Source of the DNA: Candidatus Latescibacterota bacterium
GTDB taxonomy: Bacteria; Latescibacterota; UBA2968; UBA8231
Direction of reading: 5' to 3'
Length of the DNA: 64,000 nt
NCBI GenBank assembly: GCA_965215195.1
Contig: CBDCDC010000002.1
Location: forward strand, 896,001 to 960,000
Shown: positions 40,287 to 59,380 of the stretch, in pieces
Layout of the letters: each line of letters starts with the position of its first letter
Position numbering within the stretch: position 1 is the first letter of the stretch
The notes under the pieces: generated by a model
Told to the model about the DNA's origin: nothing
Seen by the model: the letters and a program-made list of their open reading frames with translations, nothing else
Databases searched by the model: none
Made by a program: the position numbers and the translations under genes

Positions 40287-40287
40287 A

Positions 40288-41949
40288 ATGGCTACATCTG
40301 GCAACAGCGATGCGGTGCTGCTCCTGACGGCGCACCTTTCCGGCTCTGATGACAATGGAGCGAAACCTTTAACGACGAAAGAATGGTGGACATTTGATAA
40401 TTGGCTCAAGGAGCGGAATGTAACCCTAGAATACCTCTTAGAGAATGTGGATGAAGTCTTGGGAGGCAGGTCCGACCCTAGGGGAACTATGGAGAGGATT
40501 AAAAGGCTTTTAGACCGCGGAAGTGCCTTGGGGCTTGCTAAGGATAGGTGGAAGCAAGCGGGCTTATGGTGGTTGACGAGGGCCGACGAGGATTATCCGG
40601 CTCGCCTGAAGAAGCGCCTCGGCCAAGCATCCCCTGCGGTGCTGTACGGCTGTGGTCGCCAAACGCTGCTGCGCTCTAAAGGAATCGCGGTCGTCGGCTC
40701 TCGCGCAGCCTCGGATCGCGATCTTTCTTGGACTCGATTGTTCGGCGAAGCTGTGGCTGATGCCGGTTACTCCGTCGTATCGGGCGGAGCGCGGGGGGTT
40801 GATCAAGCCGCAATGTTCGGGGCACTGGACAAGGGAGGCACTGTTATCGGCATTCTTGCGGACAGCCTGTTGCGCGCGTCGTCAAGCAAGATGTACCGCT
40901 CCCATCTGCGGTCTCAGGAGCTGGTGCTGATCTCGCCGTTCCATCCCGAAGCAGCTTTCACCGTCGGCAGGGCCATGCAAAGGAACAAGTACATCTACTG
41001 CCTGTCCGACAAAGCGTTAGTTGTTCATTCCGGTATAAAGGGTGGTACTTGGGAAGGTGCCATTGAGAACATGAAGAGACAATGGGTGGTCCCTATCTGG
41101 GTTCGCCAAGATAGCGATAATTCTCCTGGCAATGCGGCCCTCTCAAGCGTCCAGCAGACACAAGGTCCTCCGCAGGAAGTAATCCGGCAGATTATAGAAG
41201 GCGACTCCTTACACACTGAAGTAGAGACCGCTTCTTCTGGTGCAGGAAACGTCTCGGAACAACCCGAGTACACCAAGCCGCAGGAGCAAAGTTCTGACCT
41301 ATACGAGCACTTCATTCAGTCGCTCCGCGAACGACTTGCCAACGGGGCTAGCAAAAAATCGCAGTTGGAAAGCCACTATGGCCTAGTGAAGAAGCAGTTC
41401 GACGCTTGGATGAAGAGAGCTGTCGAGGAAAAAGCCGTCACCAAGGACTCGAAGCCGGGGGTCCTTTATAGTTTGAACCAACAGTTTGATCGTATTAGCC
41501 CGCAGGAGCCATCTGGCAACGCTGACCTATACGAGCACTTCATTCAGTCGCTCCGCGAACGACTTGCCAACGGGGCCATCAAAGAATCACAGTTGAAGAA
41601 ACACTATGGCCTAGTGAAGTCGCAGTTCGACGCTTGGATGAAGAAGGCTATTGAGGAAAAAGCCGTCACCAAGGACTCGAAGCCGGGGGTCCTTTATAGT
41701 TTGAACCAACAGACCGAGCACGCCAGTTCGCAGGAGCAAAGTTCTGACCTATACGAGCACTTCATTCAGTCGCTCCGCGAACGACTTGCTAACGAGTTTC
41801 TTAAAAAATCAGAACTGGAAAGCCACTATGGCCTTGTGAAGTCGCAGTTCGACGCTTGGATAAAGAGGGCTATTGAGGAAAAAGTGATCATTAAGAAGAA
41901 GTCGAATCCAGCAGTGCTTAGTTTGAACCAACAGACCGAATTGATTTAG
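40288..41949 (+). CDS. DprA/Smf (SLOG) protein with three C-terminal winged-helix repeats
   Basis: DYPARL..P.VLYGCG, IAVVGSR, VVSGGARGVD, AMQRNKYIY, KGGTWEGA; C-terminal triplicate DLYEHFIQSLRERLAN...QFDAW. Confidence 0.88.
   Translation: MATSGNSDAVLLLTAHLSGSDDNGAKPLTTKEWWTFDNWLKERNVTLEYLLENVDEVLGGRSDPRGTMERIKRLLDRGSALGLAKDRWKQAGLWWLTRADEDYPARLKKRLGQASPAVLYGCGRQTLLRSKGIAVVGSRAASDRDLSWTRLFGEAVADAGYSVVSGGARGVDQAAMFGALDKGGTVIGILADSLLRASSSKMYRSHLRSQELVLISPFHPEAAFTVGRAMQRNKYIYCLSDKALVVHSGIKGGTWEGAIENMKRQWVVPIWVRQDSDNSPGNAALSSVQQTQGPPQEVIRQIIEGDSLHTEVETASSGAGNVSEQPEYTKPQEQSSDLYEHFIQSLRERLANGASKKSQLESHYGLVKKQFDAWMKRAVEEKAVTKDSKPGVLYSLNQQFDRISPQEPSGNADLYEHFIQSLRERLANGAIKESQLKKHYGLVKSQFDAWMKKAIEEKAVTKDSKPGVLYSLNQQTEHASSQEQSSDLYEHFIQSLRERLANEFLKKSELESHYGLVKSQFDAWIKRAIEEKVIIKKKSNPAVLSLNQQTELI
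41280..41940. repeat. Three ~222-228-bp intragenic repeats in dprA
   Basis: ctgacctatacgagcacttcattcagtcgctccgcgaacgacttgc at 41294, 41522 and 41744. Confidence 0.92.
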
Positions 41950-42110: not shown

Positions 42111-44702
42111 ATGACCCAAGCAGATGCACACACCGACTACGAGCGATTGTTGCTGGTCTATCTCCACGACCCGGTCGACAAGGCTCTCGACATCCGCGGA
42201 CACGAGGCCCGCGCCACCCGCTACGCTTCGCACGCCCGCGGCTGGGACGCGACCCGCCGAGAAATCAAGCATTCAGCTCAGCTAGCAGACCAACTCGCCG
42301 CCATCGCCGAGCGCATCCCCATGCCGACCGCAGGACCCAAGGGAGCGCGCGCCGTCGGCCCGGAAGACGGGCGGATCGAAGTGCGGCATCCGGTCAGCGC
42401 ACAAACAGACATGCTGGAGGGGCTGGCCCTCGACGAGAACCGCGTGGCAGAGGTGATTGACCGCATCGTCGCCGGTCTGCCCGACGACCCGCGGACGCGC
42501 TTTCTCGCGCTCTGGCGGCTGCTGCCCGAACGGCTTGCCCCACAGATCGCTCGGCTGCCGGCCGACACCCGCGTACCCGACCACACGCTGATTCAACACG
42601 CAGACATCACAAGCGGCATCTGGGCCAGTACAGAGACACGCGGCCATGCGTACCTATCGCTCTCGCTCGGCCCGGTGCAGACGTTTATCGAAGCGGCCCG
42701 CAGCGTGCGCGATTTGTGGTCGGGCAGCGCCATTCTGTCGTGGCTGACGTTCCAAGGCATCGGCCCGGTGCTCAACGCACTCGGGCCGACTGCGCTCGTC
42801 TATCCAGCCCTGCGCGGCAATCCGCTGATGGACCTGTGGCTGCGCGAGCAGGACGGGCTAGAGGACCGAGTACCAGTACCGTCGAAAACATTGCGCCGGG
42901 CCCCGTCCATCCCCAACCGCTTTGTCGCTCTCGTACCCTATGGGCCGGACGGTTCCCATGCCAAAGCCATGGCGCAAGCCTGTGCCAAAGCGGTCCGTGC
43001 GGCTTGGCAATGCCTTGCAGACGAGGTGCATCGCTCCCTCGATGGGAAATTCTCGGCAATCAACCCTGATTGGGCACGGCACTGGCAAGAGCAAGTGAAT
43101 GGCTTCTTCGACGTCAAAACCTCCATTCTACACGAGCGAGACCTGCGCGATGAACAGCTAGCCCGTCTGATCGGCGGCAAGGACTCATTCGACGAAGTGT
43201 GGTGTGAGGCCGCCAAGGTGCGTAGACTGGCCGACGCGATTCCACGCAACGAGCGTCCGGGCTACGACCAGCATTCAGCCGGCCGCTGGCAAGCCCAACT
43301 CGAAGCATCGGCGCGGCTGATGGAAGCCCAGCGTTCTATCCGCCACGTGCCGACTATTGAGGTCGAGACACCCACTCCGCCCAAGTGCAGCCTGCTCGGC
43401 TCCTACGAGCAGATGGGGCCGGCCGCTCTCAGTGATTCCCGAGACTTCTGGGACGAGGCTGCCAAGGCAGTCTCGGTAGCCGGCGTCCGCCTGCGAAAAC
43501 GCGAGCGTTTTTCCGCGGTCGCCTTGTGCAAGCGGTTTGCCGCACCGGCGTTCTTCGTCCGCCAATTAAAGCTCAATCAGCGTGCCTTGCGCTTCCCGGA
43601 TACGGCGACAGTAGCAGCGGCCGCATGGCTGGCCGCGGAGGGAATCAACCCGGACGATATCCGGTGTGAACACAACGACTGGAACGGCCGCTGGCTTCAC
43701 CAAAAACACCAAAACGATGTGGAGGATGGCGACCAACCTCCGCCGGAGGGAGTTTGGCAGAAAATCAAGGCCGCACGTAAGGAGAATCCACCGCCCGCTT
43801 ACTACGCGATTCTGGCGATGGACGCGGACGACATGGGCCAGTGGCTCAAGGGCGATCATGCGCCCAAGGTGCGCGAGGTCCTGCACCCGAAAATGGTCCG
43901 TTACTACGAGCAGCTTGGCGACGAGGCCACGGCCGGCCTTGAGGCCCGGCGGCCCGTTGGCCCGGCCCTGCACGCCTCAATCAGCGAAGCTCTCAACAAT
44001 TTCGCCAGCCACATCGCCCCCGGCATTGTAGAGAACGACAAGGGCACGATGATCTACTCAGGCGGCGACGATGTCTTGGCCCTGCTGCCGGCGCGCCGGG
44101 CGGTCGCTTGTGCGGCAGAGTTGTGCCGCGCCTTCCGCGGCGAGGACAAAGGCCCGCCCGGCTATATAGAGCGAGACGGGCACCAACTGCTGACCATGGG
44201 CGCGAAGGCCACCCTATCGGCCGGCATTGCCTTTGTACACTACAAGGAGGATTTGCGCTTGGCACTCCAAGCGGCCCGCGACGCGGAAAAAACCGCTAAG
44301 AAAAACGGCAAGAATCAGCTTGCACTTTGCTTTATGCGCCGTTCCGGCGAGCACTCCAAGGCTGGTCTGTCGTGGGAACATGGGCCGTGGTTCCAAAAGA
44401 TGATTGCCATCTTCGCCGATGGGGCCACCGCCCGCTGGACCTATCGCCTGCGCCAAGAACTGCCGACCTTGCAGGGCAGCAACATTTCCGCCGGAGCTGT
44501 TGCTGCCGAGATACGACGGCTCGTGGATCGGACCAAAGACGACAAGGCCTCCGGTTCAACTGGTCCTACAGGCGAAGACGCGGAGCGCTGGTGGCAGGCT
44601 TTTTCTCAAGCAGGGCGACAACGTGGAGATCTTCTCAAGGACTTCACCCTACTGTGCCAAGGGGCGTCGTTCGTAGCGCGAGGTCGCGATGAAGGACGGT
44701 AA
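42111..44702 (+). CDS. cas10: Type III-B CRISPR Cas10/Cmr2
   Basis: N-terminal LHDPVDKA, GPVQTFIEAARSVRDLWSGS, YYAILAMDADDMG, IYSGGDDVLA (intact GGDD). Confidence 0.93.
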   Translation: MTQADAHTDYERLLLVYLHDPVDKALDIRGHEARATRYASHARGWDATRREIKHSAQLADQLAAIAERIPMPTAGPKGARAVGPEDGRIEVRHPVSAQTDMLEGLALDENRVAEVIDRIVAGLPDDPRTRFLALWRLLPERLAPQIARLPADTRVPDHTLIQHADITSGIWASTETRGHAYLSLSLGPVQTFIEAARSVRDLWSGSAILSWLTFQGIGPVLNALGPTALVYPALRGNPLMDLWLREQDGLEDRVPVPSKTLRRAPSIPNRFVALVPYGPDGSHAKAMAQACAKAVRAAWQCLADEVHRSLDGKFSAINPDWARHWQEQVNGFFDVKTSILHERDLRDEQLARLIGGKDSFDEVWCEAAKVRRLADAIPRNERPGYDQHSAGRWQAQLEASARLMEAQRSIRHVPTIEVETPTPPKCSLLGSYEQMGPAALSDSRDFWDEAAKAVSVAGVRLRKRERFSAVALCKRFAAPAFFVRQLKLNQRALRFPDTATVAAAAWLAAEGINPDDIRCEHNDWNGRWLHQKHQNDVEDGDQPPPEGVWQKIKAARKENPPPAYYAILAMDADDMGQWLKGDHAPKVREVLHPKMVRYYEQLGDEATAGLEARRPVGPALHASISEALNNFASHIAPGIVENDKGTMIYSGGDDVLALLPARRAVACAAELCRAFRGEDKGPPGYIERDGHQLLTMGAKATLSAGIAFVHYKEDLRLALQAARDAEKTAKKNGKNQLALCFMRRSGEHSKAGLSWEHGPWFQKMIAIFADGATARWTYRLRQELPTLQGSNISAGAVAAEIRRLVDRTKDDKASGSTGPTGEDAERWWQAFSQAGRQRGDLLKDFTLLCQGASFVARGRDEGR

Positions 44703-45765
44703 TACCCTACTCCAGCTATCGCTTGAGCCGGTTGACGGCCTCTTCTTCCGCGATGCGCGGCCATTTGAGCAGGCCAGCCGGGCACAGTCCGGCCTGCCCA
44801 TGCCGCAGACCCTCGCCGGTGCCGTGCGTAGCCTGCTGCTGGAGCGGCACGGGGTGGATTTCGTCCGGCTGGGAGAACGGATGCAAACCGGCGCTTCCTT
44901 TGCCGAAGCTCTGACCGAGCTTGGCCCGGAGGTTGCAGCCGTGGCCTCGGTGCAGGTACGCGGCCCTTGGTTCACCTTGAATGGCGAGGTACTGATGCCG
45001 ACGCCGGCCACCCTCAAACGAAAAAAGAAAACCGCAAAGCTCGTGCGGCTTGACCCGCTCAAAGTGCCGCTGCCGGGTTGGCGGCCCGAAGTGCCGGGGA
45101 TGCTGCCGTTGTGGCGGCGCGGCCGGGAAACCGCAGAGCCCGCCGATGATTTCCTCAAACTGTCCGGTTTGCATCGCTTCCTCAACGGCGGTACGCCAAA
45201 ACCGGACGAATTGGTGCCGACAAACGACTTGTACGATTTCGACGACCGCACCGGCATTGGCATCGATCCGAGCCGCAACGCCGCGGCCGAAGGTTTCATT
45301 TATGGCATCAGGATGCTGGTCCTGAAATCTGAGGCTGGCTTGTACGCTGAACTGAGCGGTCCTGAGGCCGCGCTAGTGCCGATCGCGGCCGAACCCGGGC
45401 TGATGCGTTTGGGCGGCGAAGGCCGGCACGTCGCGGTCCGCACGGTTGAGCGGCCGGTCAACTGGCCGCAGATACCGCCCGCAGCGGACAAAGGCCGGCT
45501 GGTGCTGCTGGCCACGCCGGCTTGGTTCAATGGCTGGAAGCCGCCGGCCCTCGATCCGGTAGCAGCGGCCGTTGGTAACGGGCAGCCGGTTTCCGGCTGG
45601 GACTTAGCCAAAGGCGCTCCCAAGCCCAACCGCTTCATGGTCCCGGCCGGGTCCGTCTATTTTTTGCCACCAAACGCCCAAGTCCCAGACAAATTAGTCG
45701 CTGACGACGAAGACGCGAGCGTCGGGTGGGGTAGCTTTCTGGAGGGAAACTGGAACTATGTCTGA
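44689..45765 (+). CDS. cmr3: Type III-B Cmr3 (Cas5-like)
   Basis: LEPVDGLFFRDARPF, PQTLAGA, RLGGEGR, SGWDLA..PKP...VPAGSVY, GWG. Confidence 0.92.
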   Translation: MKDGNTLLQLSLEPVDGLFFRDARPFEQASRAQSGLPMPQTLAGAVRSLLLERHGVDFVRLGERMQTGASFAEALTELGPEVAAVASVQVRGPWFTLNGEVLMPTPATLKRKKKTAKLVRLDPLKVPLPGWRPEVPGMLPLWRRGRETAEPADDFLKLSGLHRFLNGGTPKPDELVPTNDLYDFDDRTGIGIDPSRNAAAEGFIYGIRMLVLKSEAGLYAELSGPEAALVPIAAEPGLMRLGGEGRHVAVRTVERPVNWPQIPPAADKGRLVLLATPAWFNGWKPPALDPVAAAVGNGQPVSGWDLAKGAPKPNRFMVPAGSVYFLPPNAQVPDKLVADDEDASVGWGSFLEGNWNYV

Positions 45766-46651
45766 CAAAACCTTGCTGTTCATTCACGCCCTGACCGGAC
45801 TCCATCCCGGCAGCGGCACGGCCTTGGGCGCGGTCGATTTGCCGGTGCAACGCGAGCGTCATACCGACTGGCCGCTGATACCCGGCTCGTCGCTCAAGGG
45901 CGTCATGCGGGCCGAATACGCGCAGGACAACCGGAAGGATGAAGACGTTCTGGCTGCGTTCGGGCCAGAGACTGAGGCTGCGTCTGACCACGCCGGCGCG
46001 GTCGCCTTTTCGGACGCGCGCATCCTCGCCTTCCCGGTGCGCTCGCTGACCGGCGTGTTCGCTTGGGTGACCTGCCGTGACGTACTGGCCCGGCTTTCGC
46101 GTGATCTCGGGCTCGTTGGCGGCGATAGCTTCCCGGCTGTTCCCACAGTCGCTAAAGACAAAGCCGCTTGCGTCGCGGACAGTCGGCTGCTGGCGCACGG
46201 CGAACAACTCATGCTGGAAGAGTTCGAATTCTCACGCGACGGCGACGCACAGGAAATTGCCAACTGGATCGCTGAGCGGGCCGTGGCAGACGCGGCCACG
46301 AAAATTCGGCTGCGCTCGCATCTGGCCGTTCTGCACGATGACGATTTTACCCACTTCGTCCGCAACGCCACCGAGGTCGTAGCTCGGGTCGGGCTCGACG
46401 AACAGAAGACCGTGCGCAAGGGTGCCCTCTTCTACGAGGAATACCTGCCACCGGAGACCCTCTTCTACTCGCTGGTGCTGTGCAGCAAAAGCCGCCGCAA
46501 GGCACGCGACAAAAGCGCTGCGGAGATTCTCACGTGGCTGCGCGAAAAAGCACCTGAGACGCTCCAAATCGGCGGCGGCGAGACGGTCGGCAAGGGCTTC
46601 TGCGCGGTGCGCTTTGACGACGCGGCCAAGGAGGAAAACAATGAGCGATAG
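45758..46651 (+). CDS. cmr4: Type III-B Cmr4 (Cas7 RAMP)
   Basis: LHPGSG..VDLPVQRERHT, PGSSLKGVMR, LFYEEYLP, LQIGGGETVGKG. Confidence 0.95.
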   Translation: MSDKTLLFIHALTGLHPGSGTALGAVDLPVQRERHTDWPLIPGSSLKGVMRAEYAQDNRKDEDVLAAFGPETEAASDHAGAVAFSDARILAFPVRSLTGVFAWVTCRDVLARLSRDLGLVGGDSFPAVPTVAKDKAACVADSRLLAHGEQLMLEEFEFSRDGDAQEIANWIAERAVADAATKIRLRSHLAVLHDDDFTHFVRNATEVVARVGLDEQKTVRKGALFYEEYLPPETLFYSLVLCSKSRRKARDKSAAEILTWLREKAPETLQIGGGETVGKGFCAVRFDDAAKEENNER

Positions 46652-47069
46652 CCGGCCCACCCTCGACCAACGTCGGGCCCAACACGCTTGGAAGACTGTA
46701 GAGCAAGCCAAAGCCTCACTCAACGCGAAAAAAGACAAGGAGGATTTTGCCCGCGAAGCCAAGCGGCTGCCGGTGCGCATCAAGACCGCCGGCTTGGGGC
46801 AGGCACTCGCTTTTCTCCTCGCAAAGGCCAAGCAGGACAAAAACAAAGGAGAAGACGCCCGTGGCCGACTGCTGGTTGCGCTAGGCGACTGGCTCCTAAA
46901 AGAGCGCGAATTGGCGACCCGTCCTAACGCCGCCGCCGACCGCGTACTAATCCAAACCCTCATCAACGGCGACGCCAACCTGCTGCGCCGCGCCACTGAA
47001 GAGGCGCTCCTGTACCTGCAATGGCTGACCCGGTTCAGCGAGGCCGAACTCGGAACGGGAGAGGAGTAA
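46641..47069 (+). CDS. cmr5: Type III-B Cmr5 (Cas11)
   Basis: TLDQRRAQHAW, KRLPVRIKTAGLGQALAFL, ATEEAL..LQWLTRFSEA; ATG 46641 after GGAGG. Confidence 0.92.
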   Translation: MSDSRPTLDQRRAQHAWKTVEQAKASLNAKKDKEDFAREAKRLPVRIKTAGLGQALAFLLAKAKQDKNKGEDARGRLLVALGDWLLKERELATRPNAAADRVLIQTLINGDANLLRRATEEALLYLQWLTRFSEAELGTGEE

Positions 47070-47072
47070 GCG

Positions 47073-49457
47073 ATGGCTCGCAGCCCTAGCCGTTCCCAAC
47101 GCCGGGACCGGACGCATACTATGCCAGCCTCCAACGCCGACCAACTCCCCAACGGGCCAATCCTTCCCCGCTCTACGTGTAACCTCGTAGATAAGGTCGT
47201 GCTCAATCACCGCCATGCCGGCCTGCAACTCGACAAGCTGTCGTCAGCCGGGGAGATGGAAAAGCAAAAACTTGCGCTGGTCGATGTCGCGCACACCTGC
47301 GGCGACGCGAAGTTGCTGGAGATGCTGATCAACCGCCGCTGCGCTGCACTGAACGCTCTCCGTGCTGAACGTCTCCTGATGACCACCCGCGGCTCGCTGA
47401 CCCTGCACCTGTCGCGGTCGGGCGCGCTGGAAAACGCCGGCATCGCCCTGCATCCGGTGTACGGCTTCGTCTATTTACCCGGCAGCGGCATCAAGGGCTT
47501 GGTCCGCTCTTGGGCTGAGACAGTGTGGGCTCCGGCGCAGTCTGACAAAAAGGAGGCGTGGCGGACGATTGAAAAAGCCTTCGGCTGGAGTCCTCAGTCG
47601 GAAAACCACAAGTTCCCGCAGCCGAAAAAGGGATTGCCGGGTTGGCGTCCCAGCGAAATAGAAGCACCGAAAGGGGCCGCGAGCGGACGGCTGGTGTTCC
47701 ACGACGCTTGGCCGCTTAGCTGGCCCAGACTAATAGTCGATGTCGTCAACAATCATCACCCCGACTATTACGACGGCAAAGACGATCCCGGCGACTGGGA
47801 GGACCCGAGGCCCGTGTATTTCCTCGCCATCGGCGCAGGCAACCAGTTCGACTTTGCCATCTCCGACCGCAAGCCCGACGACGGCCTGCTCAGCTTGGCA
47901 AGAGGCTGGCTAACAGACGCGCTGACCTCCGAGGGGGCCGGTGCCAAGACTGCGGCTGGCTACGGACGCTTTGAGCCGGTCGAGATGCTCTCGCCCGATT
48001 TCGCCAAGGCCGGCTTTGCCAGCGCGAGTTTTGACTTGAAACTGGTCACCCCCGCCTTTCTCGCCGGAGCCTCCCAACAGAAAGACGACTGCGACCTGCG
48101 TCCGGCCACCCTGCGCGGCCTGTTGCGCTGGTGGTGGCGCACCATGCACGCGGCCCACCTCGACCGGGCTTCGCTCAAGCGGCTGGAAACCGCGGTCTGG
48201 GGCGACGCGGAATCGGGCAGTCCGGTTCGCATTGCTGTGAATTTGGTGGAAGGTGGAGAGCCACGGCAGCACCCGGACAAGCAAGATCGACAGTTCCAGC
48301 AAGAACACGGTCTGCGGCGGCCCCAATCCAGTCAAAGAACAATCCAAGGATTGTTCTACGCTTCCTACGGCATGGCAGAAAAGGACCGTCGTTGGTTTCG
48401 CCCTGCTGGGTCGCTCTGGCGCGTCACCTTGACGGCCCGACGCGGTTATTTCGACAAAAATAAAAAAGCCCCTGCCATCCCCCTCTCGCCGGACCTGCTC
48501 ATAGAACAAGCCAACGCAGCCCTGTGGCTACTGACGCGGTTTGGCGGGGCCGGCTCGCGGTCGCGCAAGGGCTTCGGTTCTTTTGACGATATTGAGGTGC
48601 AGGGCATCGGCTCAATGGAAGATTGCATCAAGGCCGCAACGCGGTTCCGGGACGCCTGCGGCCTTGGAGGGAGGCGGGGACATCCGGTTGACGCGCCGGC
48701 CCTAGAGGATGTGCTGACGATGGACGATGTGGCGACACGTTGGGAGGATCCTTGGTATGCGCTTGACCGGACCGGCATGGCACTGCAACTGTTCGCCAAG
48801 AGTCTTGATTCCGAGAAGCGTATTGCGCTCGGCCTGCCGCGCCGTGTAGGTAGGGGCCGCAATGCACAGTCTCTCAGAGCTGGACAGATTGATCGTCACG
48901 CCTCCCCAGCACTTTGGAGCCTCGCAAAAAGCCGAAACGGAACCCTGCTGGTTCGCCTCATCGCATTCCCGGCCGCACGGCTGCCTGAGAAAGCCGCTAG
49001 CAGGACAATTCTGCAAAACCTTATCGACTTTGCACGTCAGCAATTGGAACAGCAGGCCGGGCAGTCCCCGCGCCCAAGCGGGCGAGGAGGTCGCGGACCG
49101 TCGGGCACCGGACGCCCGGACAGGCGAAGAAGTAACAGGTCGGCACCCTCGCGTCCCCCGCAGGGAAGCCCCAAGGCCGACCTCCCCAAAGCGCATGATC
49201 GCGTCAAGGCCGAACTTTTGGAGGAGAAGACGAAGAAAGGCGGATGGAAGGCCAAGCACATAGATAGCGGTTTATCAGGCCCGATACAAGACGCTGGGAA
49301 CGTCCCCGCCGACGCCAAGCCGGGCCAGCCCGTCGAACTGACGGTCGCCTCGGTTGGCTCGAAAGAGATGCAATTCAAATGGGCCGAACCCCGGCCGCCT
49401 AAGAAAACATCCGGCCGGCATAGCAAGCAGGAGCCTCGCAGAGGAAGCCGCCGATGA
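47073..49457 (+). CDS. Fused Cmr6-Cmr1 RAMP protein with an extra C-terminal domain
   Basis: Cmr6 motifs (LHPVYGFVYLPGSGIKG, VFHDAWP, DVVNNHHPDYY, GAGAKTAAGYG), then Cmr1 motifs (LVTPAFLAGA, LRGLLRWWWR, FGGAGSRSRKGFGS), an R/G/P-rich linker and a ~70-aa beta-rich tail. Confidence 0.85.
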   Translation: MARSPSRSQRRDRTHTMPASNADQLPNGPILPRSTCNLVDKVVLNHRHAGLQLDKLSSAGEMEKQKLALVDVAHTCGDAKLLEMLINRRCAALNALRAERLLMTTRGSLTLHLSRSGALENAGIALHPVYGFVYLPGSGIKGLVRSWAETVWAPAQSDKKEAWRTIEKAFGWSPQSENHKFPQPKKGLPGWRPSEIEAPKGAASGRLVFHDAWPLSWPRLIVDVVNNHHPDYYDGKDDPGDWEDPRPVYFLAIGAGNQFDFAISDRKPDDGLLSLARGWLTDALTSEGAGAKTAAGYGRFEPVEMLSPDFAKAGFASASFDLKLVTPAFLAGASQQKDDCDLRPATLRGLLRWWWRTMHAAHLDRASLKRLETAVWGDAESGSPVRIAVNLVEGGEPRQHPDKQDRQFQQEHGLRRPQSSQRTIQGLFYASYGMAEKDRRWFRPAGSLWRVTLTARRGYFDKNKKAPAIPLSPDLLIEQANAALWLLTRFGGAGSRSRKGFGSFDDIEVQGIGSMEDCIKAATRFRDACGLGGRRGHPVDAPALEDVLTMDDVATRWEDPWYALDRTGMALQLFAKSLDSEKRIALGLPRRVGRGRNAQSLRAGQIDRHASPALWSLAKSRNGTLLVRLIAFPAARLPEKAASRTILQNLIDFARQQLEQQAGQSPRPSGRGGRGPSGTGRPDRRRSNRSAPSRPPQGSPKADLPKAHDRVKAELLEEKTKKGGWKAKHIDSGLSGPIQDAGNVPADAKPGQPVELTVASVGSKEMQFKWAEPRPPKKTSGRHSKQEPRRGSRR

Positions 49458-49503
49458 CCGATTCGCAAATCGCCCCTATTACCTCGCAGAGGCGAACGCA
49501 ACT

Positions 49504-50265
49504 ATGAGGATTTCGCACACATTCGCCGATAAACAAAAAAGCATCTGCAACGATCCAGCCGGCGAGAAACACCCATCCGCTGCGGCCATCCCGACGCCCC
49601 CATTGGAAAACGGCGATCGGCTCACGCGGGAGGAGTTTGAGCGACGCTATAAGGCCATGCCAGACGTAACGAAGGCGGAACTGATCAATGGAGTGGTATA
49701 TATGAGCTCACCTGTTCGCTTTCGCGCTCATGGCAGACCGCACGTATTGCTGCTCACTTGGCTGGGGACATATAGTGCGTTCACGCGAGGGGTCCTTTGT
49801 GCGGATAACACCACAGTTCGCCTCGGGGCAGAGAGCGAGCCGCAGCCAGATGCCTTGCTGCGCCTAGAGCCAGAGGCGGGTGGAAATTCGCGGATTAGCG
49901 CCGACGATTATGTAGAAGGCGCACCAGAGTTGTTAGCCGAAATCGCGGCCAGTAGTGCCTCGTACGATATGCACGATAAAATGGATACCTATCGCCGCAG
50001 CGGCGTGCAGGAGTATCTTGTCTGGCGCGTGTACGACGAGCAACTCGACTGGTTTGCTCTCCGCGACGGTGAGTATATCCGTCTGACGCCTGATGAGTCT
50101 GGCGTGATTTCCAGTCAGGTGTTTCCGGGGCTGCGGTTGTCCTTGTCCGCATTATTGGCGGCTAATGCGGCTCAGGTCGTGGCCGAATTGCAGAAAGGAC
50201 TAGGGACGGCCGAGCACGCCGCGTTTGTCGCCCGACTAGGAGATGCCCACGACCCGTACCAATAG
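49504..50265 (+). CDS. Uma2 (DUF820) PD-(D/E)xK endonuclease
   Basis: LENGDRLTREEFERRY, AELINGVVYM, EPQPD, APELLAEIA, K..YRRSGVQEYLVW. Confidence 0.9.
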   Translation: MRISHTFADKQKSICNDPAGEKHPSAAAIPTPPLENGDRLTREEFERRYKAMPDVTKAELINGVVYMSSPVRFRAHGRPHVLLLTWLGTYSAFTRGVLCADNTTVRLGAESEPQPDALLRLEPEAGGNSRISADDYVEGAPELLAEIAASSASYDMHDKMDTYRRSGVQEYLVWRVYDEQLDWFALRDGEYIRLTPDESGVISSQVFPGLRLSLSALLAANAAQVVAELQKGLGTAEHAAFVARLGDAHDPYQ

Positions 50266-50321
50266 CAGCAAAGTCGGCACCAACGACATTGAAAATCCAC
50301 TTAAACACCGGGAGATATCCT

Positions 50322-51452
50322 ATGCCTAGACACACCCTTCTCTGCACTGTTGGGACGAGCTTGTTCTATCCCAATTTGTCTGGTCTCACTCACGAACCGC
50401 AGGATGACCCCATCCGTGCTGCCTTGGCTAGCGCTTATAACGAACAGAAATGGTCGAAGGTGGCGACTCAGCTATATTTAAATGTCGAACCAACGGAACG
50501 GCTCTGTGGGGCGGAGATCAATTCGGTGACTGATCTCGTCGAGCATGAACCCGTCGAGAAAGGTGCCCTTCACCTGCTATATTCCGATACGGAGGATGGA
50601 AAAGCTATCGCTGCCGTTCTGGAGCACTACTTTAGCCTTGACTGGCAGCAGGTACACACCCATCGCGTGGAGGACTTAAGTGATGAATACCCGAGAGCAT
50701 TTCGGACTCGAGGCTTGCGCAACTTGGCGAAACTCTTCGGTGAACGAGTGCGTGAAGCAGGGGCCGATTTTTGTGCCATAAACGCCACCGGTGGCTATAA
50801 AGCCCAAATCGCCATTGCCGTGCTCATGGGTCAAGCACTCAACATTCCAGTGTATTACAAGCATGAACGCTTTGATGCTATTATCCCCTTTCCCCCTATG
50901 CCGGTGGCCCTCGATTTTGAGCTATGGGAACGGGCCAGCGGCATGTTTATGGTGCTCGGTAAGCCCAACGCGTGTGAGCCGTATGAGAATTTTAGCGAGG
51001 ATTGGGATGAGCGCTTTGAACCGCTGGTCATCCGGGTACGGATTGACGACGAGGATTATCTGGAACTCTCGGCAACCGGCCAGATTTTTCACGACACCTT
51101 CCGATCCCGTTTTCAGCAGCATCAGAGCACTAGGCTTCCGCGTGCCGCACGCGAGGACGAGAAGAGGCCGCCCGCTCTGGGAGCTCACGGCTACAACGAG
51201 GCACGAGACAACATTGAGCGCCATTTGCAAAGAATCACCGATGAACGGCCTTATGTCCGCTCCTGCCATTCGACATACTGGAATCCAGATTTGCCTGAAA
51301 GCAATCGGTTTCGGATGGCAAAAGGGGAAGTCCAAGGCATATACTCGAACGGGACTTGGTGCGTGAAATTTACAGTACGCACGACAGCGGAGGATGAGGA
51401 CCAATTACGGATCGTCGTAGCCGATCTCAATGAGTGGCTAGAGACCGCCTAA
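50322..51452 (+). CDS. CRISPR-associated CARF protein (APE2256/Crn1-like) with unassigned C-terminal domain
   Basis: LCTVGTS, CGAEINS, YSDTEDG, INATGGYKA, YYKHERF; 376 aa, longer than a bare CARF. Confidence 0.8.
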   Translation: MPRHTLLCTVGTSLFYPNLSGLTHEPQDDPIRAALASAYNEQKWSKVATQLYLNVEPTERLCGAEINSVTDLVEHEPVEKGALHLLYSDTEDGKAIAAVLEHYFSLDWQQVHTHRVEDLSDEYPRAFRTRGLRNLAKLFGERVREAGADFCAINATGGYKAQIAIAVLMGQALNIPVYYKHERFDAIIPFPPMPVALDFELWERASGMFMVLGKPNACEPYENFSEDWDERFEPLVIRVRIDDEDYLELSATGQIFHDTFRSRFQQHQSTRLPRAAREDEKRPPALGAHGYNEARDNIERHLQRITDERPYVRSCHSTYWNPDLPESNRFRMAKGEVQGIYSNGTWCVKFTVRTTAEDEDQLRIVVADLNEWLETA

Positions 51453-51474: not shown

Positions 51475-52512
51475 ATGCTCACCCTCTACGTCACCGAACC
51501 CTCGGCTGTCGTCCGCCGCACGGCCGGCTCCATCACCGTCACGCTCGATGAAGACCCCGACGGCACGGGTCCCCTGCCCGAACGACGGCGACGCTTGCTT
51601 GAAGTTGAGCCGCATCGCTTGGAGCTGATTGCATTGGTGGGCCGCGCCCACATCACCTTAGACGCGACGCGGCTCTGCTTAGAGCAAGGCATTGCAGTCG
51701 CTTGGTTTCGCAGGAACGGCGACTTTGTGGGCCGCCTCGTCCCCGAACTGTCGCGCACGGCCGATCTGCGCTTGGCGCAGTTTCGCCTCGCGGACGACGA
51801 GCACCAAGCACTGCCGCTGGCCCAAACCTTTGTCGCAGCTAAACTCCACAATGCAGCCGGGGTACTCGCGGCCCTGCGCTCCAACCGCCGCAATGAGCCG
51901 ACCCTCGGCCGCGCCATAACCAAACTCAAAGCCATGGCCGCGACCGTAGCCCAAGCACCCACGCGCGAGGCTCTGCTGGGCTTTGAAGGCGATGCGGCCC
52001 GCCGCTACTTTGCGGGCTTCAAGCTCGGGTTCACCAGCGACATTCGCTTTGTTAGCCGCGCCCGCCGGCCGCCGCCGGACCCGGCCAATGCCCTGCTCTC
52101 GTTTGGCTATGTGCTGTTGGCCAATGCCTTGGCCAGCCTTTTGGAGGCCCGTGGTTTTGACCCGTATCTCGGGTTTATGCACACGGTCCGGTCCGGTCGG
52201 CCCAGCTTGGCCCTCGACTTGCTCGAAGAACTGCGGCACCCGGTAGTCGATCGCTTTGTCTTGCGCGTTTGCAATTTGCGCCAACTGCGGCCGGCGCATT
52301 TTGAGGCCGATTCTGCGCGAGGGGGTGTGCGTCTTACACGCGATGGGATGCACATCTTTTTTCGCGCTTGGGAAGCGTTTATGGATGCTCCCCTGCCCGG
52401 AATCGCCGAGAACATCGCACCAGAAAATTTGATTCGCCGTCAAGCCGATCGCTTAGCCGCTCACGTGCGCCAACGCGATCCCTATAAACCCTTGCTTTTG
52501 CGTCGCTTATAA
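51475..52512 (+). CDS. cas1: CRISPR integrase Cas1
   Basis: LGFEGDAARRYF, RRPPPDPANALLSFGY, GFDPYLGFMH, SLALDLLEELR. Confidence 0.95.
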   Translation: MLTLYVTEPSAVVRRTAGSITVTLDEDPDGTGPLPERRRRLLEVEPHRLELIALVGRAHITLDATRLCLEQGIAVAWFRRNGDFVGRLVPELSRTADLRLAQFRLADDEHQALPLAQTFVAAKLHNAAGVLAALRSNRRNEPTLGRAITKLKAMAATVAQAPTREALLGFEGDAARRYFAGFKLGFTSDIRFVSRARRPPPDPANALLSFGYVLLANALASLLEARGFDPYLGFMHTVRSGRPSLALDLLEELRHPVVDRFVLRVCNLRQLRPAHFEADSARGGVRLTRDGMHIFFRAWEAFMDAPLPGIAENIAPENLIRRQADRLAAHVRQRDPYKPLLLRRL

Positions 52513-52525
52513 AGGAGGACGGCCT

Positions 52526-52813
52526 ATGTCTCACTATGTCGTATGCTACGATGTGGTCGATAACAAACGCCGCTACAAGGTGGCCGCTTGTTTGGATGCT
52601 TATGGCGATCGCGTACAGAACAGCGTGTTTGAACTGCCCATGGATAGCACACTTTTGGACAAGTGCATCGCCGAGGTCGCTGGTCTGATCGACGCGGCCA
52701 AAGACAATGTAGCCATCTATCGCCTCTGCTCGGCCTGTGCGACCGAGCGTTTCTATTTGGGCGTGGGGGAAAAGGCCGAACGCATCGGCGATGAGCAGGT
52801 CTTCATCGCGTGA
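52526..52813 (+). CDS. cas2: CRISPR Cas2
   Basis: YVVCYDV.DNKRR, YGDRVQNSVFE, IYRLCSAC. Confidence 0.95.
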   Translation: MSHYVVCYDVVDNKRRYKVAACLDAYGDRVQNSVFELPMDSTLLDKCIAEVAGLIDAAKDNVAIYRLCSACATERFYLGVGEKAERIGDEQVFIA

Positions 52814-53009
52814 GCGTCTGTCGTAACCACCGATGCCGCCGCAGAAGCCCCTTGGTTACGAATTTGACTAACCTTTTGAAAACCTTATATTTACGTCCAA
52901 GAGCCGAACTGGTAGCCGCGATATTGGGCGGCATGTGCAAGCCTCAGTCGTTAGGTTACGAAAAGCGTTCAGGTAACTGCTTGTCAGACAAGCAGAAATC
53001 TAGGACGCC
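52814..53009 (+). promoter_or_regulatory. CRISPR leader
   Basis: Non-coding, lower GC; CGTAACC/GGTTACG(AA) motifs at ~52831, 52854 and 52954; palindrome CTGCTTGTC-A-GACAAGCAG at 52977-52995. Confidence 0.75.
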
Positions 53010-56000
53010 ATGTGAAGTTCTGCCCCGCTTATCAGGGGATTGAAACCTTTCTCTTGGTTGGGGCGCGGCGGCAGGCGCAGCTGGGATGTGAAGTTCTGCC
53101 CCGCTTATCAGGGGATTGAAACTAGAGAACACCCAGCTCATCTTCGGGGCGCCCCCCTTCCATGTGAAGTTCTGCCCCGCTTATCAGGGGATTGAAACCA
53201 TTGACATCGCCATTCATGCGATCAAGCGCGTGGCGGCGGTCCATGTGAAGTTCTGCCCCGCTTATCAGGGGATTGAAACCCCTCGTGGAAGCCCTCGCCC
53301 CGGTGCGCCAGCAAGACGCGCTGGATGTGAAGTTCTGCCCCGCTTATCAGGGGATTGAAACCGTCCCCCGCGCTGCCGATGAGGGGCCAGACATGGGCGG
53401 TGGATGTGAAGTTCTGCCCCGCTTATCAGGGGATTGAAACTCCTGATCTTGGCAGAACAGGGCGTCGTCCCCCGTCATATGTGAAGTTCTGCCCCGCTTA
53501 TCAGGGGATTGAAACACTACCCCACCCTCGGCTTCGACGACATCGTGGGCTTATGTGAAGTTCTGCCCCGCTTATCAGGGGATTGAAACGGGTGTCGGGG
53601 GGAGCCGCGCCCGCTACCGGGCGGACCTGTATGTGAAGTTCTGCCCCGCTTATCAGGGGATTGAAACGATGGCTTCTATGAGGGAGTTGATACCACCCCC
53701 AACTATGTGAAGTTCTGCCCCGCTTATCAGGGGATTGAAACTAACTCGAGAGATTGACAGTTAGATTCTAACAATTAAAATGTGAAGTTCTGCCCCGCTT
53801 ATCAGGGGATTGAAACTCGGTCGCTGTTCTCTGGTGTATCCGCGCCTCCGGTCAAAATGTGAAGTTCTGCCCCGCTTATCAGGGGATTGAAACCCGGTGA
53901 ACCCACTGCTCTAGATGGGTCACCCGCGTCGAAATAATGTGAAGTTCTGCCCCGCTTATCAGGGGATTGAAACCCTCGCTATCCGCACTATTGCGGATTT
54001 TGTCGTGTAGTTATGTGAAGTTCTGCCCCGCTTATCAGGGGATTGAAACCCGATTGACCTCGCGAAACTGGGTAGGGATCATCACTCCATCATGTGAAGT
54101 TCTGCCCCGCTTATCAGGGGATTGAAACTCTTCTCCATTGAGAAGTTCGTTTGCTACATGGGCCATATGTGAAGTTCTGCCCCGCTTATCAGGGGATTGA
54201 AACGAGCAGAGCCGCGCTCTCCGCCGCTTCGGCGATACTGAAAAAATGTGAAGTTCTGCCCCGCTTATCAGGGGATTGAAACACGTGGTGCCTGTGCGAC
54301 GCCTGCGCCTTGGAGGCGTGGCATGTGAAGTTCTGCCCCGCTTATCAGGGGATTGAAACAAAGCGTCCGCCGCCGCCCACGCATCGAGGCCCCGGCAGCA
54401 AATGTGAAGTTCTGCCCCGCTTATCAGGGGATTGAAACCTGACCTCATTGGGGGGCACCCTCTATATGAGCGACGCGATGTGAAGTTCTGCCCCGCTTAT
54501 CAGTGCGGCAGCGCCGGATGCACGCAGTACACGGCCCCTAAGTGAGCGACGCGATGTGAAGTTCTGCCCCGCTTATCAGGGGATTGAAACCGGGTACCAG
54601 CCTGACCCATGCTCAGACGGCCCATGAGCAAGATGTGAAGTTCTGCCCCGCTTATCAGGGGATTGAAACGGCCTTGGGGCCGACGGGGGGCGGCTTTACA
54701 CGTTCAGCGATGTGAAGTTCTGCCCCGCTTATCAGGGGATTGAAACCTCGGCCTCAGTTGCCAGCGACGCACCGTTATACGCAGCCATGTGAAGTTCTGC
54801 CCCGCTTATCAGGGGATTGAAACTGGAGCACCGCGCCCTCCCAGATGTACCGCCGCCCCATGTGAAGTTCTGCCCCGCTTATCAGGGGATTGAAACGAGC
54901 AGAGCCGCGCTCTCCGCCGCTTCGGCGATACTGAAAAAATGTGAAGTTCTGCCCCGCTTATCAGGGGATTGAAACACGTGGTGCCTGTGCGACGCCTGCG
55001 CCTTGGAGGCGTGGCATGTGAAGTTCTGCCCCGCTTATCAGGGGATTGAAACGACAACTATAATACGTACCATGGGATTTCTCCTTTTTATATGTGAAGT
55101 TCTGCCCCGCTTATCAGGGGATTGAAACATGCCCGTGGCGTAGGTGAGGCCCAGCTCCTGCGTGTCGTCATGTGAAGTTCTGCCCCGCTTATCAGGGGAT
55201 TGAAACGTGGGGTCCTCCCCTGTCGTCAGCACAGCCGTCGGAAGGATGTGAAGTTCTGCCCCGCTTATCAGGGGATTGAAACGTAGCCAGCCGCCACCGT
55301 GTAAACTTCGGTGGAGGCGACCTTATGTGAAGTTCTGCCCCGCTTATCAGGGGATTGAAACTCCACGTACGACGCTATCTCGTCGCGGAAGGCCTCGATC
55401 CCATGTGAAGTTCTGCCCCGCTTATCAGGGGATTGAAACTTTGGTAGTGCCATAGTGTTTCCGTATTGCGAGTTTCACATGTGAAGTTCTGCCCCGCTTA
55501 TCAGGGGATTGAAACATGGTTCTCTCACTCTCTTGAAACAATTCTTCTGTTTTTTCCATGTGAAGTTCTGCCCCGCTTATCAGGGGATTGAAACGTAGCC
55601 AATTCGCGTTGCGTTGCGTAACTCGGCGCCCTCGCTATGTGAAGTTCTGCCCCGCTTATCAGGGGATTGAAACCAAGGCCACTCAAGGTTGCAACGCGGG
55701 CCTGCGGGTCCATGTGAAGTTCTGCCCCGCTTATCAGGGGATTGAAACGATGATTCCGAACGGACCCTGATCGATCGTCAAGCCGATATGTGAAGTTCTG
55801 CCCCGCTTATCAGGGGATTGAAACCGCCGCCTAGCGCAGCACCTGGCGGCATTGTCCCCGGCGATGTGAAGTTCTGCCCCGCTTATCAGGGGATTGAAAC
55901 GACGGCCTGAGCGTCTAGTCGGGCTTGCTTTTCTTTCTCATGTGAAGTTCTGCCCCGCTTATCAGGGGATTGAAACGGCCCTTGGCGAGGTAATACATCC

Positions 56001-58510
56001 CCGTGCATACAGCCCCATGTGAAGTTCTGCCCCGCTTATCAGGGGATTGAAACTTGGGGGACCTGGGCTTCATACGGCTGGGGCGCGGCCGTATGTGAAG
56101 TTCTGCCCCGCTTATCAGGGGATTGAAACATCCGCTTCATGGTATTCTCCATGTTTCGGGTCATCCCCCCATGTGAAGTTCTGCCCCGCTTATCAGGGGA
56201 TTGAAACCTATCAACGTGTGCGCCAGATCAGTCCCCCTCGTCGAAGAGCCATGTGAAGTTCTGCCCCGCTTATCAGGGGATTGAAACGCGATGACTCGGA
56301 TGGGGGGCACTCGCGGGTACGCGACTATGTGAAGTTCTGCCCCGCTTATCAGGGGATTGAAACCCAGCCGGCCACGCAGCAGGGCGTGTTACACAGGAGG
56401 GATGTGAAGTTCTGCCCCGCTTATCAGGGGATTGAAACCTGCGACGCCGGGCGAGTCCAGATCCGCGGCCAGCAGGCATGTGAAGTTCTGCCCCGCTTAT
56501 CAGGGGATTGAAACGACACCATCCCCTTTGGAGGAGGCCGAGTGCCTTTTCATGTGAAGTTCTGCCCCGCTTATCAGGGGATTGAAACCCCCACAGGGGC
56601 AGCCCTTGGCAGACGCCGGCGAGGATACGATGTGAAGTTCTGCCCCGCTTATCAGGGGATTGAAACCCCCACAGGTCGCGGGGCGTGGTGTGCTCCTCGT
56701 CGAGATGTGAAGTTCTGCCCCGCTTATCAGGGGATTGAAACCCTTTAATCAGCTTTCGCTGACCCCTCAGGAATCACCCCCCATGTGAAGTTCTGCCCCG
56801 CTTATCAGGGGATTGAAACATTTGCTTGGCCATGCTTAGCGAACATTCCAGCTGGATAACCAATGTGAAGTTCTGCCCCGCTTATCAGGGGATTGAAACT
56901 CCTGCTTCTTAAATTTGCCACCACTCTCAGTGATGGCGTTATGTGAAGTTCTGCCCCGCTTATCAGGGGATTGAAACTCTACTGGTGCTATCAACTCCTG
57001 CACACCGACACGAACCTTGATGTGAAGTTCTGCCCCGCTTATCAGGGGATTGAAACCGGGCCTTTTGTGTAGTACAGAATCGTGTCGTGTCCCATGTGAA
57101 GTTCTGCCCCGCTTATCAGGGGATTGAAACACCGTGCGGCTTGCTCCTCGGTCAAGGCGATGTCGAAGTATATGTGAAGTTCTGCCCCGCTTATCAGGGG
57201 ATTGAAACGTAGACGACAAGGCCACGCGGGAGGATTTGTCGGCGGCGGGATGTGAAGTTCTGCCCCGCTTATCAGGGGATTGAAACGCGCGGCCGGCGGC
57301 TCTGTGCAGCGGCCTTTTTCCTTGATGTGAAGTTCTGCCCCGCTTATCAGGGGATTGAAACCCGCAGCCCCCGGCCGAGACGGCTGCGGGGGGCCTCGGC
57401 GAGATGTGAAGTTCTGCCCCGCTTATCAGGGGATTGAAACGGAACGCCATGAAGTACATTATCGAGGAGTTCTCACCGTCGGATGTGAAGTTCTGCCCCG
57501 CTTATCAGGGGATTGAAACCTCTACTTCGGCCTCCTCTTCGTTCTCATCGAGGAGAAGATGTGAAGTTCTGCCCCGCTTATCAGGGGATTGAAACTGAAT
57601 GGGCGAGAGGGACCGGCAGCCGTTGAAGCCGACATGTGAAGTTCTGCCCCGCTTATCAGGGGATTGAAACTGACCCGACGCTGCCCCCGTCTCCTAGTGG
57701 GCTGACCCTATGTGAAGTTCTGCCCCGCTTATCAGGGGATTGAAACGCGGCCATGAGCTGTTTGTCCGCCTCTTTTTCCGCCGAATGTGAAGTTCTGCCC
57801 CGCTTATCAGGGGATTGAAACCAAGGCCTGCTGGCCCCGTAGAGCCACGACCGGGAGAGGCACATGTGAAGTTCTGCCCCGCTTATCAGGGGATTGAAAC
57901 CGTAGACCTCGGGCTGGACGCTGGGCACCCAGAAGTCGAGATGTGAAGTTCTGCCCCGCTTATCAGGGGATTGAAACCCGCCGCCAACGCCAACCCCTTC
58001 ACGGAGTCGGTCGGGGCATGTGAAGTTCTGCCCCGCTTATCAGGGGATTGAAACTGGCGTCGCTCGTCGCGCGGGCAATTGCCGTTGTCTTGGCATGTGA
58101 AGTTCTGCCCCGCTTATCAGGGGATTGAAACTCGCTTTGCGCCATTTCAGTGTAGGCCAACCAAGCATACCCATGTGAAGTTCTGCCCCGCTTATCAGGG
58201 GATTGAAACCGCAAGGACTCCATATTTCCCTCCTTGTTTTATGGCGTATGTGAAGTTCTGCCCCGCTTATCAGGGGATTGAAACCTCGCCGCCGGTCAGC
58301 CCCAGCGCATCCAGGTCCAGATGTGAAGTTCTGCCCCGCTTATCAGGGGATTGAAATTGAACTGATCGCCGTCGAGCTCGTACGGCTTCTCCATGTATGT
58401 GAAGTTCTGCCCCGCTTATCAGGGGATTGAAACCGCTTAGCCCGGTCCTCGGCGGATAGGCCCAGCTCATCGGATGTGAAGTTCTGTCCTGCTTATCAGG
58501 GGATTGACGA
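53010..58510 (+). CRISPR. CRISPR array, 37-bp repeat ATGTGAAGTTCTGCCCCGCTTATCAGGGGATTGAAAC, ~72 repeats / ~71 spacers of roughly 35-45 bp
   Basis: Counted by eye. 3' ATTGAAAC tag, leader at left, degenerate terminal repeat at 58474, one truncated repeat at 54478. Confidence 0.98.
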
Positions 58511-58564
58511 CCCTGCCAGTACATTTGTTGTTTGTCGCCTATAAATAGATCGGCACAAGCCGCT

Positions 58565-59380
58565 ATGCACTGGCACAAACACCTCGAAGTGCTGCTTTCT
58601 CGCGTTCAGATACAGGCGTGGCAACTTCTGCTCGACACGCCCGAGGTGCGGGCGACCGCGCCCATGTTGCGCGGCGTCTGGGGACGCGCACTGCGACATT
58701 TGGATGAGGAAGTTTATCAGCAGGTTTTTGCAGGCAAAGCATTGGGACATCGCCGCATCCCCCGCTACATCCTGCGACCTGCCCCCCCCGACCCGGCGAT
58801 TGCACCGGCTATCGAGTGGATCCTGCTCGGGGTGGATGAGGAACTGGAGGAAGTGCTGTGGCGGGCATGGGATGTGGCCAGCGGCATGGGGCTGGGGCCG
58901 GAGCGCGTACCGTTTCGCATCCGCGAGCGGCGGCCCCTCAGCGCGGGCCAATCCGACTGGCCCCTGACCGGCGATCCAGCCACAACGCCGTGCAGCCTAC
59001 AGTTTGGTACGCCGCTGCGCCTACTCCGCCGCGGCACCCTCCTTGCGGCACCCGACTTAGCGGCCATCGCCACAGCCGCTATGCGCCGCTATGCTGGCCT
59101 AGCCGGTATAACCGGCGGAGAATCCTACCGCGACTTGATGCGAGCCGTCAAGCAGCAAGCCGCCGCAACGCCGGCCGCCCCTTGGCGCGGTGGTCGGCTC
59201 GATTTTTTGCGCTGGTCCAGCACCCAACAGCGCGAGCTAAACCTGCGCGGCGTAGTCGGCGCGTTGGACTTGCCCGCTGGTCCCGGCCCGCTCTGGCCCC
59301 TGTTGGCCGCATCCTGTTGGACCCACATTGGCAAAGGCGCGGTATTTGGCTTAGGCCAATTGTGCATCGAAAAATCCTGA
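58565..59380 (+). CDS. cas6: CRISPR endoribonuclease Cas6
   Basis: LRGVWGRAL, FGTPLRL, RWSSTQ and C-terminal G-rich loop HIGKGAVFGLGQ. Confidence 0.88.
   Translation: MHWHKHLEVLLSRVQIQAWQLLLDTPEVRATAPMLRGVWGRALRHLDEEVYQQVFAGKALGHRRIPRYILRPAPPDPAIAPAIEWILLGVDEELEEVLWRAWDVASGMGLGPERVPFRIRERRPLSAGQSDWPLTGDPATTPCSLQFGTPLRLLRRGTLLAAPDLAAIATAAMRRYAGLAGITGGESYRDLMRAVKQQAAATPAAPWRGGRLDFLRWSSTQQRELNLRGVVGALDLPAGPGPLWPLLAASCWTHIGKGAVFGLGQLCIEKS

Follow-up and report, generated by a model that had tools for sequence, protein, structure and literature searches.

The window analysed here, a stretch of 64,000 nt (G000:C2:896001-960000), carries a type III-B (Cmr) CRISPR-Cas locus on the plus strand, in which cmr2/cas10, cmr3, cmr4, cmr5, cmr6 and cmr1 are all present. 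The effector module (42111..49457) consists of cmr2/cas10 (42111-44702), cmr3 (44689-45765), cmr4 (45758-46651), cmr5 (46422-47069) and a single open reading frame matching both Cmr6 and Cmr1 (47073-49457). Cmr2, Cmr3, Cmr4, Cmr6 and Cmr1 were called by NCBIfam equivalog matches over the cut-off, and Cmr5 by the Pfam family Cas_Cmr5. A gene of the Uma2 family separates the module from a CARF-type accessory gene (Cas_APE2256; 50289..51452; Pfam 4.9e-31, TIGR02619), which is followed by a full-length cas1 (51475..52512; TIGR00287, 5.8e-71, model positions 2-327 of 327) and by cas2 (52526..52813; TIGR01573, 3.8e-15). The cas1-cas2 pair is intact and adjoins the leader, a region of about 200 bp (52814..53009) that ends in ...CTAGGACGCC ahead of the first repeat, so that the pair lies about 200 bp upstream of the array. 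The array itself (53010..58511) comprises 71 full 37-nt repeats (ATGTGAAGTTCTGCCCCGCTTATCAGGGGATTGAAAC) and one truncated repeat, and cas6 (58532..59380; Pfam CRISPR_Cas6, 3.2e-11) is located downstream of it. All but two of the 71 full repeats are identical, and both variants are found at the far end, which fixes the leader side of the array. The repeat is unique to this array in the genome: its first 26 nt gave 72 matches, all of them here. The last bases of the repeat, ATTGAAAC, directly follow a 4-bp CCCC/GGGG hairpin in the computed fold, and cas6 stands 3' of the array; by the handle rule ATTGAAAC is predicted to be the 8-nt 5' handle from a Cas6-processed repeat.

The array contains one irregular unit. 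Full repeat 19 (54402-54438) is followed by spacer S19 of 39 nt (54439-54477) and then by the truncated repeat (54478-54503), which holds the first 26 of the 37 nt and lacks GGGATTGAAAC. After this come an insert of 39 nt, called X here (54504-54542), the terminal 11 nt of S19 once more, TGAGCGACGCG (54543-54553), and again a full repeat (54554-54590). The coordinates of the truncated repeat, the insert and the 11-nt copy in the original prediction were exact on re-checking. The 11 nt of the S19 end together with repeat bases 1-26 form a block of 37 bp (54467..54503) that recurs at 54543..54579, where it continues into the full repeat; a script comparison found the two copies identical at 37/37 positions, and the match cannot be extended on the left (A versus G) or on the right (T versus G). 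That a copy of a spacer end abuts a repeat exactly in this way by chance is excluded. A repeat without its GGGG arm and tag had been described; the 8-nt crRNA handle is indeed absent, but the 3' hairpin arm has lost three of its four G and keeps one. The other 69 spacers measure 36-45 nt, most often 39 nt (15 of 69), and the insert, described earlier as spacer-sized, thus has the modal length. At another place in the array a block of two spacers has been duplicated (54204-54322 = 54897-55015).

Read support for the structure was sought in Logan contigs of four sequencing runs (X1-X4), all from a single study and possibly among the data from which the assembly was made. In runs X2 and X3 a contig of 95 nt spans 54478-54572, and with it both junctions, with 0 differences; its depth was 993 in X2 and 494 in X3, compared with about 935 and about 484 for the S19 contig. 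Two contigs of run X1 (depth 585-588) cover both junctions, in line with neighbouring spacers at a depth of about 480-530, and the 40-mer common to X and the chromosome reached 1295 versus 585, about double, as expected of two genomic copies. A contig of 96 nt in run X4 fits in part, and a length of this size (29 + 37 + 30 nt) would result if the duplicated 37-mer were traversed wrongly. In individual runs certain spacers are uncovered, and the one that follows the full repeat is almost so in all four; such gaps prove nothing. Arrays are hard to assemble and the four runs are perhaps the source of the assembly, yet junctions without differences at the depth of the neighbouring spacers, together with the doubled depth of the shared 40-mer, leave an assembly or sequencing artefact with hardly any probability. 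A mis-join is excluded by the runs, though these are not independent of the assembly. Attempts to find the pre-integration allele gave no match to S19 in the metagenome contigs, among which the 24-nt repeat core was found 0 times as well, and contigs built from 31-mers are unable to separate the alleles before and after integration.

The source of X is on the host chromosome. A blastn search placed all 39 nt (39/39) on the minus strand of G000:C2:353742-353780, about 597 kb away on the same replicon, and the match extends to 40/40 with the next T. Because this T is common to the source of X and to the duplicated block, the event comprised either a duplication of 37 bp with a spacer of 39 nt or a duplication of 36 bp with a spacer of 40 nt; the original figure of 37 bp therefore stands as an identity of 37/37 but could be 36 as the size of the duplication. 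Beyond the shared T the source reads AATTTACC... and the array GAGCGACGCG, and on the other flank the source has ...TTTTAGA and the array ...TTATCAG, so that homology between source and target is nil (0 nt) at the left junction and limited to 1 nt at the right. A protospacer in which X runs on into TGAGCGACGCG had been proposed as a sign of simple deletion or recombination; in the source X does not continue into TGAGCGACGCG, and apart from the one T the flanks differ from those in the array. The source lies within a short-chain dehydrogenase gene (Pfam adh_short, 4.8e-48) whose neighbours, an FAD-linked oxidase gene and peptidyl-prolyl isomerase genes, are ordinary chromosomal genes. With up to 3 mismatches the segment was found, in one copy each, in 10 of 30 other species of the genus, and the source gene is therefore conserved; only G018 of these ten is free of mismatches, the other nine differing at 2-3 positions. 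A foreign source was looked for in viral contigs (exact match), phages and plasmids, and no match was obtained, so the viral origin considered earlier gives way to the host chromosome. X thus has the perfect match outside the array that marks a self-targeting spacer. It is the reverse complement of the dehydrogenase coding strand, and an array transcript of X, being complementary to the mRNA, could pair with it.

The unit has the form A-[B R1]-X-[B R1]-R2. A staggered, transposition-like integration yields precisely this product when A|B and R1|R2 are the points of attack. A single Cas1-Cas2 event is by a wide margin the simplest explanation, since the duplicated block is as long as a repeat, the insert has the modal length and comes from one contiguous source, the junctions share at most 1 nt and an intact cas1-cas2 pair adjoins the leader. 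We therefore favour, at a probability of roughly 0.8, one off-register full-site Cas1-Cas2 integration with a stagger of repeat length, as had been predicted for a target shifted by 11 bp at a repeat other than the first. In this reaction Cas1-Cas2, most likely the pair beside the leader, would have captured a fragment of 39 nt (or 40 nt) from the host dehydrogenase gene and, in an otherwise normal two-step, staggered, full-site reaction, inserted it at a wrong site. The attack on one strand would have fallen 11 nt inside spacer S19 and that on the other between repeat bases 26 and 27, and gap repair would then have duplicated the 37 bp (or 36 bp) lying between both cuts. The two cuts are not at the borders of the leader-proximal repeat; one lies 11 nt before a repeat that is not the first, the other after its base 26. 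The stagger thus retained its length although the register was lost, which indicates that the distance between the cuts is fixed by the integrase complex rather than by the borders of the repeat. Since S19 was already upstream, the site was at least the second repeat when hit. A position in mid-array had been stated; that the repeat was not the first holds, but the distance of the site from the leader at the time of integration cannot be dated. The evidence comes from a single event, and the duplication may be 36 bp.

Two accounts would dispense with a misplaced integration. Fork stalling and template switching during replication could in principle have produced a tandem duplication together with a copied stretch of about 39 nt from the dehydrogenase gene, without Cas1-Cas2. 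Formally the structure is that of a tandem duplication with a templated insert, and the source is on the same replicon, if about 597 kb off; junction homology, however, does not exceed 1 nt, and neither the repeat length of the duplication nor the modal length of the insert would be explained, so we consider this very unlikely. Alternatively, X could have entered in register and the unit been reshaped later, by loss of GGGATTGAAAC before X and gain of the 11-nt copy of the S19 end after it. The array is known to rearrange, as its two-spacer duplication demonstrates, but here two independent events of 11 nt would have to restore by chance the geometry of a single staggered integration, and counter-selection would be expected to act on an in-register X, given its antisense orientation to a host mRNA (PMC8860593). 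Such a sequence of events appears even less probable than template switching.

The identity of the integrase behind the favoured off-register integration is not certain, as the genome has two other cas1 genes. Altogether there are three cas1 genes and three arrays, and in every array the repeat is 37 nt long with ATTGAAAC at its end. A second Cmr locus accompanies one of the other two arrays, and the third locus has a weak cas3-like match. Two apparent arrays on contig C1 have fixed gaps of 50 nt and 78 nt and were rejected as not CRISPR. The same mechanism could have operated with other details, either through Cas1-Cas2 of another CRISPR locus acting in trans or with a prespacer from the DNA of a close relative. 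G018 carries the 39 nt free of mismatches, the three cas1 genes serve arrays with like repeat ends, and spacers of array 2 reach 40 nt. Against this, a perfect source is present on the same chromosome while nine of the ten other matching species differ at 2-3 positions, a length of 39-40 nt is modal here (range 36-45) but at the upper edge in array 2 (34-40) and outside the range in array 3 (32-37), and the duplicated block is unlike the other repeats (9-12/37). We judge these variants unlikely, though less so than the two accounts above.

What set the register of the off-target reaction was examined from both cut sites. As a mimic of the canonical junction the top-strand site was rejected, matching it at 1/16 positions, and so was the duplicated block as a pseudo-repeat, which agrees with its own repeat in register at 8/37 positions and with the other repeats at 9-12/37. 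With such values the second cut looks measured rather than read from the sequence, in agreement with the ruler-defined second sites of types I-B and II-A. For type I-B a ruler anchored in mid-repeat has been described (PMC4872114), and for type II-A a second site chosen by a ruler, with repeat mutants that give partial duplication of a spacer (PMC6895254). Anchor motifs in mid-repeat, shifted accordingly, were looked for by eye and none was found. The bottom-strand cut, ...TCCC|CTGATAAG, resembles the canonical leader-repeat junction, ...CGCC|ATGTGAAG: the comparison of TCAATCCC|CTGATAAG with AGGACGCC|ATGTGAAG gave 8/16 identities, and 7/11 in the window from -3 to +8. When about 360 positions of the two strands were ranked post hoc, the site shared rank 3, tied with 7-13 others, and the two positions that outrank it are true repeat starts. 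Off-target sites of a type II-A integrase likewise resemble a leader-repeat junction (PMC6895254). A complex docked in reverse at this cryptic bottom-strand site would, with a ruler of 37 bp, reach exactly 11 nt inside S19. The resemblance, chosen post hoc and with ties, hints weakly that the cryptic site caused the register. The end of S19 had been put forward as a decoy anchor resembling the leader end. Of the 70 contexts none other comes as close to the last six leader bases (5/6; next best 4/6 in five contexts; window chosen post hoc), which lends the idea partial support, but a decoy of this kind leaves the shift of 11 bp unexplained, and the final leader bases differ in G005, the one relative with this repeat.

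The consequences of the misplacement for crRNA production can be predicted from the sequence. Lacking an upstream Cas6 site and the ATTGAAAC handle, X would be transcribed only within a predicted intermediate of 152 nt, the distance from one Cas6 site to the next, compared with about 77 nt for a normal unit; this intermediate begins with S19. Type III crRNAs are trimmed from the 3' end, and such trimming should leave a normal S19 crRNA and discard X. A long double-spacer crRNA had been anticipated, and the intermediate of 152 nt is indeed to be expected, but the product after trimming should be the S19 crRNA without X. Since it has neither handle nor upstream Cas6 site, X is predicted to be silent and should be non-functional as a crRNA. 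Had X been placed correctly, autoimmunity would probably have led to its loss, while the mis-registered silent copy could persist. A hairpin formed by the truncated repeat and the start of X was rejected as not notable (-13.2 kcal/mol, z -0.75).

Other self-matching spacers of the genome were compared with X. The second III-B array holds three perfect self spacers, all in register and all sense, derived from the 16S rRNA gene, a transketolase gene and a gene of 661 aa with FlgD_ig and CHU_C matches. In the X array, spacer sp44 matches the chromosome at 37/39 positions, 12 nt past the stop of a peptidyl-prolyl isomerase gene and in + sense. The target of sp44 is overlapped by a minus-strand open reading frame of 145 aa without family matches, which is a possible target. 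All in-register self spacers are thus of the harmless kind and the sole mRNA-complementary one is the handle-less X, a pattern that, with 3-4 spacers, is not statistically significant but is consistent with, and the very one predicted by, counter-selection in a type III system (PMC8860593). In that study, type III-A takes host spacers in both orientations and those matching the template strand are counter-selected.

The rarity of such units was assessed by scanning further arrays. No second off-register unit was found in the two other arrays of the genome (31 and 42 spacers), and none, setting aside two over-long gaps in L025, among 92 repeats of six loci that share the repeat core. These six loci belong to MAGs labelled Latescibacteria, Rhodothermales and Pseudohongiella. 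A scan of arrays with this repeat for further truncated repeats obeying the same length rule had been suggested; the two sister arrays and the six related loci showed none. A full-text literature search, in which the sources were available in part, returned no report of a natural, off-register duplication of repeat length inside an array. Laboratory work has already produced off-target integration in which the duplication is as long as the repeat, and the present unit is a natural variant of it.

In the type I-E system of E. coli, off-target ('non-canonical') Cas1-Cas2 integration reportedly seeds neo-CRISPR loci, as Nivala et al. are said to have described in 2018 with over-expressed Cas1-Cas2, at sites outside arrays and with a target duplication of about repeat length. 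The X unit resembles these in being a full-site integration away from the leader-repeat junction, but it arose in a natural genome, at a spacer-repeat border inside an array, and is associated with type III-B. Ectopic events in type II-A arrays are reported to be in register and to give full functional repeats. Here too an internal repeat was used, and the upstream spacer end is the best leader-end match of the 70 contexts, but the event is shifted by 11 bp, out of register, and leaves a truncated repeat. Ectopic acquisition inside the array is reported for the type II-A arrays of S. thermophilus, S. pyogenes and S. mutans in PMC7999890, and in S. pyogenes a sequence within the array serves as a substitute leader anchor (McGinn and Marraffini, as cited in 10.1101/2022.05.19.492656). 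For type III-A, PMC13769266 describes promiscuous integration by Cas1-Cas2 in vitro.

The closest mechanistic parallels concern the second cut. According to PMC4872114 and PMC6895254, a sequence-independent second cut at a measured distance is a property of H. hispanica I-B and S. thermophilus II-A, respectively, and in repeat mutants mis-positioning duplicates part of a spacer, as with X. In those engineered repeats, however, the size of the duplication shifts by 1-3 bp, whereas here the repeat is wild-type, the length is kept and the register is off by 11 bp. With respect to the fragment captured, X agrees with type III-A adaptation, in which spacers are taken from host DNA, rRNA genes included, in either orientation and transcript-pairing ones are lost (PMC8860593); a template-strand host spacer kept through mis-registration, as in the present array, is not mentioned in the accessible portion of that paper.

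Nearly all mapping of spacer integration comes from a handful of model systems, in many cases with over-expressed proteins or mutated repeats. With the X unit a type III-B-associated integrase has left, unforced and in nature, a rare record of a missed target, which displays both cut positions, the captured fragment and the exact source of the fragment. A stagger length that outlives the loss of register bears on how the length of the repeat is measured. We also raise, as a doubtful extension, that mis-registered integration might be a general route by which otherwise autoimmune spacers are kept in type III arrays; broken repeats in which repeat prefix and spacer suffix add up to the repeat length might then be fossils of self-sampling, and the stagger might be purely geometric, nucleated at any junction-like sequence in either orientation, here CC|NTGNNAAG on the opposite strand. 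The signature is simple and searchable, so that array databases can be screened for similar events. In the case of X, it illustrates how a spacer against a host mRNA may stay in an array harmlessly.

Several genes lie around the type III-B (Cmr) module in the window. Directly upstream of cmr2 are a DEAD-box helicase gene and a gene for a DprA/SLOG-domain protein (38208-41949), and a Uma2-family endonuclease gene (49354-50265) is flanked by cmr genes and a CARF gene. An ORF of 794 aa (47073-49457) matches Cmr6 over residues 121-301 and Cmr1 over residues 322-505, and may encode a fusion protein.

The source genome carries a third CRISPR locus on the same contig (C2:4546216-4552924), with cas1, a 43-repeat array having spacers of 32-37 nt, and a cas3-like helicase match that was below the cut-off. 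The repeat end ATTGAAAC is common to all three arrays of this genome.

Spacers matching the host itself were found in two arrays. Spacer sp44 of the main array (window 56439-56477) agrees at 37 of 39 positions with the host chromosome at C2:3249573-3249611, 12 nt past the stop codon of a SurA-like isomerase gene, and is in the sense orientation. The second type III-B array (C2:198005-200354) has three perfect host matches among its 31 spacers, all sense: one to the 16S rRNA gene (L032 1669-1706), one to a transketolase gene (L030) and one to a gene for a 661-aa FlgD_ig/CHU_C protein (L031).

At the end of the Pseudohongiella array (L025 2662-3333), one of the loci sharing the repeat core, two gaps of 267 and 368 nt were over-long; both are AT-rich and bounded by weak repeat matches.

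Duplicated blocks were observed in two arrays. In the main array, two spacers and the intervening repeat are present twice, at window positions 54204-54322 and 54897-55015, 693 bp apart, which points to recombination between parts of this array. The off-register unit is located between both copies. In the related 14-repeat array of G005, a relative sharing the main array's repeat, the final two spacers, next to the trailer, are identical (L009 2395-2510) and represent a tandem duplication.
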